DNA of 64,000 nucleotides from Octopus vulgaris (taxonomy: Eukaryota), in NCBI GenBank assembly GCA_951406725.2, contig OX597838.1:3472001-3536000 (forward strand), in the 5' to 3' direction. Under the pieces are notes generated by a model. It ran no database searches and was not told the DNA's origin. It saw only the letters and a list, made by a program, of their open reading frames with translations. Position 1 is the stretch's first letter, and each line of letters begins with the position of its first letter. The position numbers were made by a program, and so were the translations under genes. Shown here one piece after another: positions 5,266 to 24,659 of the stretch.

Positions 5266-7442
5266 TTATATATAAAAGTGAAGTTGTGTGCTGTCTGTCT
5301 CCTACGATTTAGATTCCTAACTACTCCCACATTTTGCGGTGCAGTTTAACCAAAACCGGGTATCTTATAGTCGTGATTCATATCGAGCCCTTCTGGGTAT
5401 TAACGCGCGTCTACGATGGGTCTACGATTTTAAAAATAATTTACCATAATTTTTTTCCATTTTAATGCCTTGTTTTCGCTATTATATAAGGGAAGTAACT
5501 CTCTAAAAATGTCTACGATGAGTCAACGATTTAAAAAAAAATTTACCATAATTTTTTCTCCATTTTTAATGCATTTTTTGCTATTTTTTGGCTATAACTC
5601 TCTAAAAAGGCTTTATAGTTATTTCCCTTACAAACCTGAGCAACACTGGGCGATACTGCTAGTATATATATATATATAATACATAATCCGAACATGGTCG
5701 ATGCCAGTGTTCCCTGACTGGCTCCTGTGCCGGTGGCATGTAAAAAGCACTATCCGAATGTGATCGATGCCAGGGCTGTCTGACTGGTTCCTGTGCCGGT
5801 GGCACATAAAAAGCACCCACTACACTCTCAGGGCGGTTGGCATTAGGAAGGGCATCCAGAAACCTTGCCAGATCAGATTGGAGCCTGGTGCAGCCTCTGG
5901 CTTTCCAGGCCTCAGTCAAACTGTCCAACCCATGCCAGCATGGAAAACAGCTAATCCACTTTTCTAAACTTTCCTGTCCATCTCAACTTAATCTTGAAGG
6001 GATCATCTCCTTCCTAGATGACAACTGACCACCAGGGGTACAGCATAAATATCTTTTATTTTTTCTTTTCCAGACCATTCTCTTCTTCTGTGCTTGCGGT
6101 GGCCTGTCGTTCTTGTATCCTTATTTGGCATGTGGAACCGATGTCTCTCGCAGAACGGTAAGGAATATCTTGGGCTTCTTTCTTGTCTTAAATCATCTCG
6201 AATCAAATCTCTTCAAAAATAAATCCTTCAGTAATATTTCCTTTTTCCTTATATGAACCCTGAATCTTCTGTTTTGCGGGTCGAAATGATTCGGCATTGT
6301 CACTGTAACCACCACCACCACAGCTGGTGCTACTAATACTACTACGACGACCACCACTATACCTCACCATATCACCATCACTACCATCAACTCCATCACT
6401 GCCACCAGCATCACCACCACTACCACCACCATTACACCATCACTACTGCAGTTGTCCCCATCCTCACAACCACCTTCACCACCACCACCACCACCATCCT
6501 CACCACCACCACCACCATCACCTCTACTACTAATTCAACCTGTTTTTATTTTTGCTTGCAGACCATCGGCCAGCTGTGTTCAGATTCTGCAACAAGACCA
6601 CCATTCTCCAGTGTCCAGTTTAGGCTGGAGTCCAAGTGGTGACCTTTTGCTCTCAGCTTCACCCATTGACACTGCTGTCATGGTTTGTTTCTTTCTCTTT
6701 TCTTTTCTTTTCACTCATTTAAAAAAAAAAATAACATTGCAGATAAAAAAAGCCTAATGAGATAACAGGTCGTTAACCTCATTAACCTATCGGATCAGTG
6801 ATTTATTGCAAGGTCAAGGGCTGAACAACTCTTCATAAACATTTATGTTGTCAGAGTGTATGTGTAACGTACCTGTTCACATGTCTAGTATGTATGTACC
6901 TAATTGTCTGTCTGTCTATCTGTTTGTCTGCCTGTCTGTCTATCTGTTTGTCTGTCTGTCTATCTCTATCTCTCTCTCCCTCTGTCTTTCTCAGTCTCTC
7001 TGTCTCTGTATCTATCTATCTCTCCCTCTGTCTATCTCTCTCTCTCTCTCTCTCTCCCTCTGTATCTGTCTTCATATTTATATCACTTTTCAAACTCCTC
7101 CCCCCACTTCCAGCTTCTCTTCCAAATACAATTAGCCATGTCCCTCCTCTATAGCAAGAAACCTGTTCTACTTTGGCCCTTTCCCTCTCACCTTACCCCT
7201 CCTTATTCTCCTTGCATAAAGTTCCCCTTGTATGGTATCCCCAGTAGTGCAGGTGCTACATAAAAAGCACCCTGTACACGCTGTGAAGTGGCTGGTGTTA
7301 GGAAGGGCATCCAGCTGTTGAAACCATACCAAAGCAGACAGTGCAATCCTTGAGACTGTCAGATCCTGTCAAACTGTCCAACCCATGCCAGCGTGGAAAA
7401 AGGGACGTTAAATGATGATACATATATATATGTGTATATATA

Positions 7443-7488
<46 letters not shown>

Positions 7489-8972
7489 GATATATGTATC
7501 ATCTCCGAAAATCTGCAGAAAACAACTTCTGTCACTTTCCAGGGGGAAAAATTAGAAGTAGTTGATAGCTTCCGTTATCTAGGTGACCAAGTCAGTAGTG
7601 GGGGTGGGTGTGCTGAGAGTGTAACTGCTAGAATAAGAATAGCCTGGGCAAAGTTTAGGGAGCTCTTACCTCTGCTGGTGACTAAAGGCCTCTCGCTCAG
7701 AGTAAAGGGCAGACTGTATGATGCATGTGTTCGAACTGCCATGCTACATGGCAGTGAAACATGGGCCGTGACTGCTGAGGACATGCGTAAGCTCATGAGG
7801 AATGAAGTCAGTATGCTCCGATGGATGTGTAATGTCAGTGTACTTACTCGACAGAGTGTTAGTTCCCTAAGAGAAATGTTGTACCTAAGAAGCATCAGTT
7901 GTTGTGTGCAAGAGAGACGATTGCGATGGTATGGTCATGTGGCGAGAATGGATGAAGATAGGTGTGTGAGAAAGTGCCAATCCCTAGCAGTTGAGGGAAC
8001 CCGTGGAAGAGGTAGACCCAGGAAAACCTGGGACGAGGTGGTGAAGCACGACCTTCGAACATTAGGTCTCACCATGGAAATGACTAGAGACCGAGACCTA
8101 TGGAAGTATGCTGTGCGTGAGAAGACCCGGCAAGACTAGTGAAGCCATAACCCATGGCCCCTACCTGGGACGTAGTCAGTCCGCCTGTGCATACCTTCCT
8201 GCTTGTGACACTTGTGAAGACCTGTTGTGGCAAATCAAATCAAAGTCAAATCGAATCAAGTCAAACCAAATCAAAATAGATGAACATCAATGGAATTTGT
8301 ATCCTTGTGGTACCAGTGCCGGTGGCACATAAGAAAACCATCCGAACCGGACCGTAGCCAGTACCGCATCGACTGGCCTCCGTGCTGTGGGCACGTAACA
8401 AACACCGTCCGAGCGTGGCCGTCTGGCACCTGTGTCGGTGGCACATAAAAACACCATCCGAGCGTGGCCGTCTGCCAGCCTCGTCTGGCACCTGTGTCGG
8501 TGGCACATAAAAACACCATCCGAGCGTGGCCGTCTGCCAGCCTCGTCTGGCACCTGTGTCGGTGGCACATAAAAACACCATCCGAGCGTGGCCGTCTGCC
8601 AGCCTCATCTGGCACCTGTGTCGGTGGCACATAAAAACACCATCCGAGCGTGGCCGTTCGCCAGCCTCGTCTGGCACCTGTGTCGGTGGCACATAAAATC
8701 ACCCACTACACTCTCGGAGTGGTTGGCGTTAGGAAGGGCATCCAGCTGTAGAAACACTGCCAGATCTGACTGGCCTGGTGCAGCCTTCGGGCTCCCCAGA
8801 CCCCAGTTGAACCGTCCAACCCATGCTAGCATGGAAAGCGGACGTTAAACGATGATGATGATGATAGCCGGCTGCCAACACTTTTTTCTGTAAAATAGAT
8901 ATATATATACACACGTAAATACATATATATATACACACATACATCATACATACATACACACATAAATACATG

Positions 8973-22079: not shown

Positions 22080-22889
22080 CTCCTCACCCCACTCCTCATT
22101 CTCCCACCACAGCTGTCTTTCTTCTTCGATTTATTTATTTTAATATCTTTTGTTGCTATAGTGATGTTGGTATTTAACCCAGGGCAGGTTCTGACCAAGC
22201 TGGCTTCAAATCGAACACATGCACCAACTGTGATCATCTTGTTTTTGTTTTCAGACAGAGTAAGAGCCAAGTATATCTTGGACTACATTACGTGTCCTTC
22301 CTTTTTCTTCTAGACAATAGAAGTGGTATGAGGGAGGTTTGGTTGTTGTAGTTATTTTAGTTGAACAGGTTTCAACATTGCAGACCCTCTGCGGGAATAA
22401 GGCGGTGAGCTGGCGGAATTGTTAGCAAGCCGGGCAGAATGCTTAGCGGTATTTCAACTGTCTTATGTTCTGAGTTCAAATTCCGCTGAGGTCAACTTTG
22501 CTGTTCTTCCTTTCGGGGTCGCACTGGGGTCGATTATCAAATGTTTATTCACTAAAATTGTTTTGAGTTAATCACGTACCATCTTTGTAGCATTGAGATT
22601 CCGATGTTATTTATGTTTAGAATGACATTGTAGGGTAGGTGTGAGAGACTGGATCTGGCCAGTTTAAATGCTAAATGGTTAACTGTTTCTCTGCATATGT
22701 TCCCTTCTTCCTCTAAAAAAAAAAAACTCCCCTGTTGGTTCACAATTGTTGTTTAGCTCCAGATCAGTTCCTGGTTGAATAGACCTATAATCAAAGACAT
22801 TCGTTCAAAACCCGTTGTTTTCCCACTGACTGTTGGCAACATTTATCTGCGCGTATTCTTTTAACATAAGATTGTAGGGCTTGGCATGT

Positions 22890-23901
22890 TCAATACGGTG
22901 TATGCCCTCCCTGGCTGTTCAAAACGGCCATACACCGTCGGTGCAGGGAATGCATGAGGCGGTTCACAAAAGCCATTGGCACCTGTGCCCACACCCTGAG
23001 GAAAGCTGCCCCCAGTTCCACACGAGTAGTCGGCCTTGGGACCACCTGGTTCAGCCGTCTGGATTTCATTCCACAGGTGTTCAAATCCGAGCTGAGAGCC
23101 GGCCACGGTATGTTTCTGATGTTGTGCTAACGCGGGAAGTCCATGGTGACCCTGACCGTGTTGGAGGGAGCATTGCCCTGCTGGAACACGTAGTTATTGT
23201 GCGAAGATGGGCACAATGTGAGATTTTAGGATCTGCTCAATGTAGCCTTGCGCTGTGATGCGATTTCCTCTGCTTGCACCAACATTTTGGAGCACATGGG
23301 GTCCAGTTCTCTGCCTATAGCACCCCAAACAATAGTGCTTTCGGTCACCCCACGCGTCTCTATAGCGTTCATCCCTCTTACGTCACACCCTCACTCTGCC
23401 ATCCGAAGCGGAAACGCAGTATTGGCTCCCGTCAGAGAAGACTATCGATGTCCATTGTTGATGTTGCCAATGTCGATGCTGTGTAGCCCAGTGTGGTCGT
23501 GCCTGACGGTGGTGGGGGATGGGGACAGGCCCTCGGGGAAGACGACGGTAATGCAGGGCGGCGGCGGCCAGTCGACGTCGTACCGTGTCCTCGCTGATGG
23601 GTCGCTGTTCAGTGCCAGTGGTCGCGCAAGCCATCACGCTGGCCGGTCTGAAGCGATCATGGAGGTGTTTCAGGTAGATGAAGCGGTCCTGCCTGGACGT
23701 GGTCAACTGGGGGGTGCCCTCTGTGAACATGGTCTGCAGTGCTGTTGGTGTTGTATCGCTGTTTCAGGCGATAGATGGTGCTGACATGGACACGACTATA
23801 TCATCACCCTCAAGTTTCGAAGCAACCAAGGCACAGTGCCCTGCTTGCAATCGGCCGATAGATTACTCTCTCTCTCTCTACGTTGCTGACAATCGGGTCA
23901 T
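22890..23901 (-). pseudogene. Tc1-family transposase pseudogene
   Basis: TTSRQDR...ISEDTVRRRL...WTSIVFSDGSQY...DGRVRV...FQQGNAP...WPALSSDLN...GGHTPY, with frameshifts and stops. Confidence 0.88.
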
Positions 23902-24221
23902 ACCTGACGCGTCCAAATTACGAATTAATTTTATTCAAGCCACAAGGGCCAAACATAGAGGGGACAACACAAAAATGAGCACGGGAGTTGGGAAGTGTGT
24001 GCAATTACATAGAAATGAAGGATTAAAAATTTATGATGATAAAACGAATGAAAAACAAACAGTACAATGAAGTGGGGGGCGGTTACGACCCCGCAAGACA
24101 CGTTCCTCCACTGGACCTTTTGGTTTACCTGTTACAGATTACATTCATGCAGGGTCTTTCATTTCCAACACGTATACCACTTATTTACAATTGATGGATA
24201 TTTGTCCTCATTTTGTTTCTT

Positions 24222-24267
24222 AACACAACGTTTCGGCTGACATATCCTCCAGCCTTCATCAGGTGTC
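24222..24267 (-). ncRNA. Minimal type I hammerhead ribozyme motif (Penelope-type), inverted copy
   Basis: GACAC-CUGAUGA-A-GGCUG...CAGCC-GAAAC-GUU/GUGUU. Confidence 0.72.
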
Positions 24268-24497
24268 TTGGGGGAAATTTCGAACCTGGGTTCTCATTCC
24301 TAAGGTATTTTTCGATGTTGTTATTGTTATTATTATAATTCAGGTCACTGCCTGGAATCGAACTCGGAATCTTGGGGTTAAGAGCGCGGACTACTAACCA
24401 CAAGATTCCGAATTCAATTCCAGACAGTGGCCTGAATAATAATAATAACATTGAAAAATACCTTAGGAATGAGAACCCAGGTTTGAAATTTCCCCAA

Positions 24498-24543
24498 GAC
24501 ACCTGATGAAGGCTGGAGGGTATATAAGTCGAAACGTTGTGTT
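24498..24543 (+). ncRNA. Minimal type I hammerhead ribozyme motif (Penelope-type)
   Basis: GACAC-CUGAUGA-A-GGCU...AGUC-GAAAC-GUU/GUGUU. Confidence 0.7.
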
Positions 24544-24659
24544 AACAACAAAACAAGATGAGGTCAAATATCCGTCAAATGTAAATAATGTAAATAATAT
24601 ACATAATTCCTCATCTCTTAAATATAAAAACTGTATTATGTATACCACCTGCTACCATC

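Follow-up and report, generated by a model that had tools for sequence, protein, structure and literature searches.

Within a 64,000-nucleotide stretch of the Octopus vulgaris genome (hereafter the window), a palindrome bears a tRNA-like sequence near its centre and a hammerhead ribozyme motif on each strand, raising the question of what such a structure is and how it arose. The initial annotation had read it as a non-autonomous element in which a tRNA-derived polymerase III promoter is coupled to a self-cleaving ribozyme, and from which a transcript of either polarity would form a viroid-like rod. Our analysis leads to another answer. The palindrome is probably one decayed insertion derived from a Penelope-like retrotransposon, namely from its end repeat (pLTR). 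This repeat has a tRNA-derived, likely polymerase III promoter, and most of its short copies were likely made by the Penelope enzyme from SINE-like RNAs.

Two head-to-head partial copies of one repeat

The palindromic stretch at 24181-24637 is real and is built of two head-to-head partial copies of a repeat of about 280 nt. The inversion described in the initial annotation stands, but the arm limits given there (24181-24375 and 24400-24588) have to be redrawn, as the plus arm runs from 24376 to about 24637 and the minus arm reaches 24380, the two overlapping by 5 nt (Table 1). The (AAT)n runs were found in the arms where they had been described, as were both B-box-like sites, although that of the plus arm fails the strict pattern. 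The A-box-like site assigned to the minus strand of the centre is instead the antisense of the anticodon-arm region, and between 24300 and 24460 the strict A-box pattern is unmatched on both strands; a promoter acting from the palindrome centre is therefore unsupported. The further fragment that had been placed at about 32945-33000 does belong to the same family but comprises its 3' part only.

No Penelope ORF was found adjoining the 24181-24637 locus. About 400 nt to the left of the insertion lies a broken piece of a Tc1/mariner transposase (HTH_Tnp_Tc3_2; 22878-23784 on the minus strand, including 23383-23763), and 7354-8139 (+) holds what we take to be a C-terminal piece of an RTE-like, LINE-type reverse transcriptase. 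Exon-like frames at 6290-6757 and 40967-44957 (+) resemble a WD-repeat gene (aladin-like) and legumain, relative to which the palindrome may be intronic or intergenic.

Table 1. Coordinates of the palindrome, its parts and a separate family fragment in the window
Feature	Position	Strand	Basis or remark
Target-site duplication, left copy, 11 bp	24170..24180	+	10/11 identical to 24638-24648; one CpG-type change
Target-site duplication, right copy, 11 bp	24638..24648	+	Pairs with 24170-24180
Inverted arm: pLTR copy truncated on both sides (family positions 40-237), without tail or A box	24181..24380	-	Family majority matched at 187/195 aligned bases
Direct arm: pLTR copy without A box, starting at family position 21 and reaching the family's far 3' end	24376..24637	+	Family majority matched at 243/256 aligned bases
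Arm overlap, 5 nt (junction microhomology)	24376..24380	.	Complementary to 24395-24399
tRNA-derived head remnant	24376..24432	+	tRNA-Arg TCG (locus L075), z 9.9, 0/300 shuffles
B box of plus-arm head, mutated	24410-24421	+	Fails strict pattern
B box of minus-arm head, intact	24354..24365	-	Strict box pattern
(AAT)n spacer, variable in length	24435..24449	+	Sequence, family copies
ATG opening the Penelope protein frame in ORF-bearing relatives, 5' of the ribozyme	24469..24471	+	L201, L204: 95 stop-free codons into the ORF
Type I hammerhead of the minimal kind with unchanged core and weakened stem II; cleavage predicted at 24538/24539	24498..24543	+	Sequence, folds
Type I hammerhead of the minimal kind with unchanged core and 5-bp stem II; cleavage predicted between 24227 and 24226	24222..24267	-	Sequence, folds
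One-sided tail, absent from the minus arm; start of the coding ORF in full-length elements	24589..24637	+	Family alignment, ORF-linked loci
Separate short 3' fragment of the pLTR family, without head or ribozyme	32951..33015	+	83% alike over 65 nt

The repeat is the end repeat of a Penelope-like element

A search of the 2.8-Gb genome seeded with the plus arm gave 3,388 candidates, of which 40 were scored and the best 30 examined. These best 30 of the 3,388 copies stop sharply at one common 3' end, and the 5' end that they share lies some 20 nt before 24376. An exact 32-mer of the repeat has 2,214 matches (0 for a reversed control), copies are about 92-93% alike to the family majority over the body, and the unit was also found in sequencing runs from 6 organisms.

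The association with Penelope RT/GIY-YIG ORFs that had been suggested for this locus is borne out at the family level. When only the ORF end was used as the query, 30 loci were recovered, and all but one had the unit behind the GIY-YIG stop codon (29/30, a count that includes the query locus and three apparent duplicates); the exception keeps 5 nt and an (AAT)n run. With the ORF start alone as the query, the 3' part of the unit directly abutted the ORF in 24/30 loci, and in positional samples some heads are preceded by coding sequence. The ORF upstream of the head contains a reverse transcriptase domain (Pfam RVT_1, E 5.8e-8) and its C-terminal part resembles GIY-YIG clusters with a score of 0.97, the family being annotated on 18-27% of the cluster members; Pfam gave no match on the GIY-YIG piece itself, and the C-terminal part has no significant match to the 781-aa Penelope-like (PLE) family of this genome. 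The linked ORF is putatively Poseidon-like.

A near-complete though broken element (L153) has a tail that continues in frame into the N-terminal part of the ORF, and in 2 of 14 copies examined (L201, L204) this frame can be read, stop-free for 95 codons, from an ATG that lies 5' of the ribozyme. Partial tandems place the head before the ORF start in four loci (L189, L197, L207, L214). The order of the element is GIY-YIG stop, tRNA-derived head, (AAT)n, ATG, hammerhead, tail and the rest of the ORF, and the repeat is the pLTR of a Penelope-like RT/GIY-YIG retrotransposon. The composite proposed in the initial annotation was thus correct in its parts, a tRNA-derived head and a hammerhead, but not in its status as a separate non-autonomous unit, being the pLTR of the autonomous element itself.

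Other PLE families (the 781-aa ORF and its kin), retrieved by a Pfam GIY-YIG search of the genome, were considered as the partner and rejected, as their hammerheads differ and none of 30/30 loci had a BLAST match to the unit. One such family is young (L151 1245-3587, L154; L031-L060), with many identical 781-aa frames and hammerhead-like motifs carrying a U3-A8 core variant; L154 has an additional upstream frame of 430 aa.

Inverted pairs carry a Penelope insertion footprint

The initial annotation had connected the inversion with Penelope integration, and a sample of 54 insertions (60 loci less 6 duplicates) supports this: 35 are head-to-head, 1 is tail-to-tail and 18 are single, a tail arm is paired with a no-tail arm in 27 of the 35 head-to-head insertions, and target duplications of at least 9 nt were called automatically in 13/35, against 0.68 for shuffled flanks. 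The palindrome locus shows the inverted copy, the one-sided tail and the target duplication, all three. Sister arms (54 pairs) share non-majority bases at 0.63% of sites, 3.5 times the 0.18% (maximum 0.32%) obtained in 500 shuffles, indicating that both arms usually come from one source element; the palindrome's own pair has 0 private shared variants at 118 sites.

The junctions overlap in 46/69 cases, are blunt in 4/69 and contain extra bases in 19/69, with an overlap of at least 3 nt in 34/69, a count that has no null and that BLAST ends inflate. Both the position of the junction and the lengths of the arms vary from copy to copy. At L114 (1340-1360) the junction geometry is nearly that of the palindrome, with arms from family positions 40 and 23, which suggests a secondary junction hot spot where the D arm and the anticodon arm are complementary.

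Fold-back or self-priming has been proposed for Penelope inverted ends in the available passages of PMC3846280. A single-cDNA fold-back would fit the 5-nt overlap of the palindrome but leaves unexplained why the second arm ends at a second preferred 3' end. In a species that has the family, RNA-seq reads diverge from the reference at two 3' positions separated by 34 nt, single copies too can end at the second preferred 3' end, and the PAc enzyme extends both strands in vitro (PMC11167929). Priming from both cut strands is favoured over fold-back for the inverted pairs. On balance, the reverse transcriptase/endonuclease would cut the two target strands about 11 bp apart, each cut would prime a cDNA, one from each internal start site, and the cDNA 3' ends would join by a few complementary bases (here 24376-24380), leaving one arm with a tail and one without.

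The tRNA-derived head is a likely polymerase III promoter

By shuffle-tested comparison with 27 distinct tRNA sequences from the same genome (30 loci, only 6 amino-acid types), the pLTR head best matches tRNA-Arg(TCG) (z 10.9, 0/300 shuffles), so that the tRNA-like head of the initial annotation is indeed derived from a tRNA. The arginine isotype is tentative, because Arg(TCT) and Thr follow at z of about 8. The annotation had also looked to standard RNA search tools to recognise the head, which neither of the two used does: Rfam returned only hairpin or microsatellite noise on the window, the locus and a full-head copy, and ARAGORN called 0 tRNA genes in the window and 0 in 29/29 family loci. 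The family majority holds both a strict A box and a strict B box, the A box lying 5' of the part retained in the palindrome arms; at the palindrome locus the A box is absent on both strands, and the B box satisfies the strict pattern in the minus arm alone. With the A box missing from both arms, this copy would be dead as a polymerase III unit. In five other loci (L103, L107, L115, L164, L172) different retroelements have apparently landed within the (AAT)n spacer or next to it, so that the head is split or replaced.

Counts of exact 20-mers are flat upstream of the head (850 at about 145 nt and 929 at 15-25 nt) and then step up 5.5-fold at the tRNA start, reaching 5,148 in the head and 7,482 behind it, a step inflated by the ORF-linked copies, which at 88% likeness over the unit, against 92-93% for short copies, are more diverged and yield fewer exact matches. 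About 5/6 of the head copies are without an ORF side. With 6 duplicates removed, the 30 head-anchored loci come to 24. In 14 of these the copy begins between family positions -2 and 12, and in 4 more it does so behind a short fold-back stub, as judged by eye; truncation within the head accounts for 3 loci, 2 retain 15-21 nt from upstream of it, and the last extends far into the ORF. Six copies found from the ORF start reach the head, of which 4 continue upstream and 2 start there.

One could suppose that these short copies are an independent SINE, made when a tRNA head fused once to a Penelope 3' end, with an autonomous partner that has no head. The predominance of head copies without an ORF side is what such an origin would give, as is the closer likeness of short than of ORF-linked copies to the family majority. 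In nearly all loci recovered with the ORF end, the head nevertheless comes after the stop codon, which contradicts the strict form of this origin, and the head also precedes the ORF start in the partial tandems described above; we regard it as very unlikely.

The sense strand holds no TTTT run in the unit and none in the 2,315 nt of the L153 ORF. Other copies, surveyed as 72 segments with a coverage of 12 or more, have 0.25 TTTT per kb and no common site, as compared with 3.3 per kb in the 781-aa PLE family, which is of like composition, and 1.7-5.9 per kb in 8 of 9 other groups of retroelement ORFs, the ninth being a 555-nt piece with none. Against shuffles of the ORF itself the deficit has P values of 0.007 (single bases), 0.027 (dinucleotides) and 0.064 (synonymous codons); it is modest, and suggestive rather than conclusive. 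Considered together, the A and B boxes in the family, the step at the tRNA start and the 2.3-kb ORF without TTTT make it likely, as far as sequence can tell, that the tRNA-derived segment serves as a polymerase III promoter and that the tRNA-headed unit is transcribed from it. A source copy would then probably be transcribed from its head onward through ribozyme and tail, as no TTTT run intervenes.

About 6% of each of three raw RNA-seq runs was compared with a reference comprising the ORF end and the unit at 85% likeness, in libraries that may miss short RNAs. Between 6,700 and 9,700 reads mapped per run, with mate directions equal and 66-71% running on into unlike flanks, and in these ordinary RNA-seq data, all three runs being from a species that has the family, neither the starts nor the ends of reads accumulate at the head or the hammerhead cut site. 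The pattern fits passive read-through and is uninformative on short polymerase III RNAs.

The same starts could arise if the tRNA segment were a passenger in the same pLTR insertion, with the RNA made by polymerase II or read-through and with a border hairpin stopping reverse transcription or letting the cDNA fold back. A hairpin spanning the border of ORF and head is predicted at -13.4 kcal/mol in one ORF-linked copy and -8.1 in another, and the fold-back stubs of 4/24 loci, the upstream extension of 4/6 ORF-start copies, and the palindromic pLTR starts without tRNA published, and the self-priming proposed, in the available passages of PMC3846280 all speak for such a course. Yet the A and B boxes are intact although the cloverleaf is unrecognised, many junctions pair a head-start arm with an arm from an unrelated position, so that annealing of a palindrome is unnecessary, and 2.3 kb run without TTTT; on these grounds a passenger origin appears rather unlikely. 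As a separate observation, the 20 nt preceding the head in L131 (oriented, about 1880-1925) resemble the start of the head in inverted and decayed form, as would be expected had a fold-back junction long ago become fixed in a source element.

Minimal hammerheads and the viroid-like reading

Both hammerhead motifs, and the predicted plus-strand cut, lie where the initial annotation had located them, and its assignment to the minimal Penelope type agrees with the minimal type I pattern in the available passages of PMC4209133. The features matched are the core boxes, the bulged base, G10.1-C11.1, the palindromic helix III bases, and stems I and II. Stem II of the plus-arm motif has one mismatch. 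The predicted pairing probability of stem II exceeds 0.9 in the left arm and the family majority and is 0.0 in the right arm alone. Rfam gave no hammerhead match at the palindrome locus.

All 11 core bases are kept in 59/114 copies. In 138 copies unselected for the ribozyme, core bases differ at 36/1,173 positions (3.1%) as against 668/15,713 (4.3%) elsewhere (p 0.049, composition unmatched), and the single common variant in the first hammerhead box falls on the free position N7. This slight difference and the placement of the common variant make it likely that the hammerhead is maintained in source elements and decays in their copies. A second minimal hammerhead, of another family, lies at 58705-58755 (-) with a different stem II and the same core and palindromic helix III bases, and is probably another Penelope stub. 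A further hammerhead-like repeat, the third, whose stem II is very short, occurs on the opposite strand of L038 at about 946.

Were the palindrome itself a functional unit, transcription of either polarity would have to give a viroid-like rod with an active ribozyme. Read-through RNA of the whole 24181-24637 is indeed predicted to fold as a rod (-284 kcal/mol, z = -29.7, equalled by 0/100 shuffles), each strand has one intact core, and about half of the copies keep the core entire. In that same rod, however, the predicted pairing probability of stems I and II is 0.00 for either polarity and every core base is paired, both ribozymes being wholly bound to the antisense arm, and the viroid-like claim of the initial annotation is rejected on this account. 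Moreover, each strand offers a single sense ribozyme of a type that requires a dimer and cuts poorly, according to the available passages of PMC4209133, and two sense ribozymes in tandem are found at few loci (L100, L173). Junctions and arm lengths vary freely, core decay is near background, and the palindrome has no A box, leaving this interpretation with a probability close to nil.

Returning to the pLTR insertion that we prefer, the hammerhead would be inherited from the pLTR. By analogy with published work, cleavage would require a dimer or the assistance of a protein, and the ribozyme may be dispensable for insertion. In any read-through RNA of the palindrome, pairing of the arms would silence both ribozymes.

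Implications

The locus itself is one among thousands of dead copies, and its mirror layout is already known. SINEs are normally taken to use LINE enzymes. A tRNA-headed short element with a full Penelope footprint means that some repeats filed as SINEs may be Penelope products, and the likely promoter would let short pLTR copies multiply into the thousands in the manner of a SINE. With so many paired insertions, a statistical test of how Penelope elements form their inverted ends is also feasible.

A more far-reaching reading is that an autonomous Penelope element captured a tRNA-derived promoter and is transcribed wholly by polymerase III, its 2.3-kb ORF purged of TTTT, while the same promoter yields a SINE-like, pLTR-only swarm mobilised by the Penelope enzymes. 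This is possible but doubtful. If polymerase III did read the whole coding element, a protein-coding retrotransposon would be using a class of promoter for short non-coding RNA, which raises the questions of how a coding RNA made by polymerase III is translated and what a ribozyme within the first codons does.

Comparison with known systems

The inverted layout, the tail, the target duplication and the minimal hammerhead have already been published for Penelope-like elements. In the available passages on EN+ elements (Adineta Pen2a, PMC3846280; Anolis PAc, PMC11167929; the scheme in PMC8557442), the ORF likewise joins a reverse transcriptase to a C-terminal GIY-YIG domain, the first codons lie inside the pLTR, the hammerhead sits at the ORF start and partial tandems occur, as do an optional one-sided tail, an inverted 5' copy and a target duplication of about 10 bp. 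In PAc the ribozyme marks the beginning of the ORF, and the tail is bounded by two internal RT start sites (PMC11167929). The octopus family differs from these elements in having a tRNA-derived segment with A and B boxes between the stop codon and the ATG, in that most copies begin there, and in its ORF without TTTT; for Adineta Pen2a, a TATA/Inr-like promoter is described in the passages available (PMC3846280).

The hammerhead shares with the metazoan Penelope-like ones, as portrayed in the same portions of PMC4209133, the core boxes, the extra base before stem II, G10.1-C11.1, palindromic 15.2-16.2 and a 5-bp stem I, and is distinguished by a stem II of 5 bp rather than 7-8 and by a U at the predicted cut site; opposite-strand hammerhead pairs 100-700 bp apart are mentioned there. 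The Schistosoma Sm-alpha and Sj-alpha repeats (available parts of PMC2770079 and PMC6765202) are also tRNA-related, SINE-like and hammerhead-bearing, and are reported as polymerase III transcripts. By these descriptions they are set apart as tandem repeats that self-cleave from multimers, whereas the octopus copies are scattered, are arranged head-to-head and belong physically to an element with a Penelope ORF. Tandem retrozymes have been linked to pLTRs in the accessible text of bioRxiv 10.64898/2026.07.22.740005; head-to-tail tandem units each with a ribozyme, of the retrozyme or Sm-alpha type, do not characterise our loci, where head-to-head pairs and singles dominate.

With tRNA-derived SINEs the short copies have in common a tRNA head, small size, high copy number and a 3' end shared with an autonomous partner, but the partner is a Penelope element rather than a LINE and itself carries the head, there is no A-rich tail, and inverted pairs occur. 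The tRNA-derived octopus SINEs OK, OR1 and OR2 were reportedly described by Ohshima and Okada in 1994. In the part of the literature available, OR2 is listed as a CORE SINE. The main text of an octopus repeat annotation, in its available passages, reports many unclassified SINEs and makes no mention of a hammerhead or ribozyme (PMC13282606). Chlamys/MRC1 is non-autonomous, and the passages of PMC8557442 describe no tRNA head for MRC1. Cassandra, Helenus and Ajax, in the available account (PMC10886601), resemble the octopus repeat in carrying a small-RNA-derived polymerase III-type sequence within a terminal repeat; they are non-autonomous LTR elements, whereas the octopus repeat belongs to a coding Penelope element. 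Full-text literature searches brought up no paper on a tRNA-headed pLTR or a Penelope-mobilised tRNA SINE, and the repeat databases Repbase, Dfam and SINEBase may list the family. What sets the octopus family apart from all of these, judged by its sequence, is a Penelope pLTR that starts with a tRNA-derived and probably polymerase III promoter.
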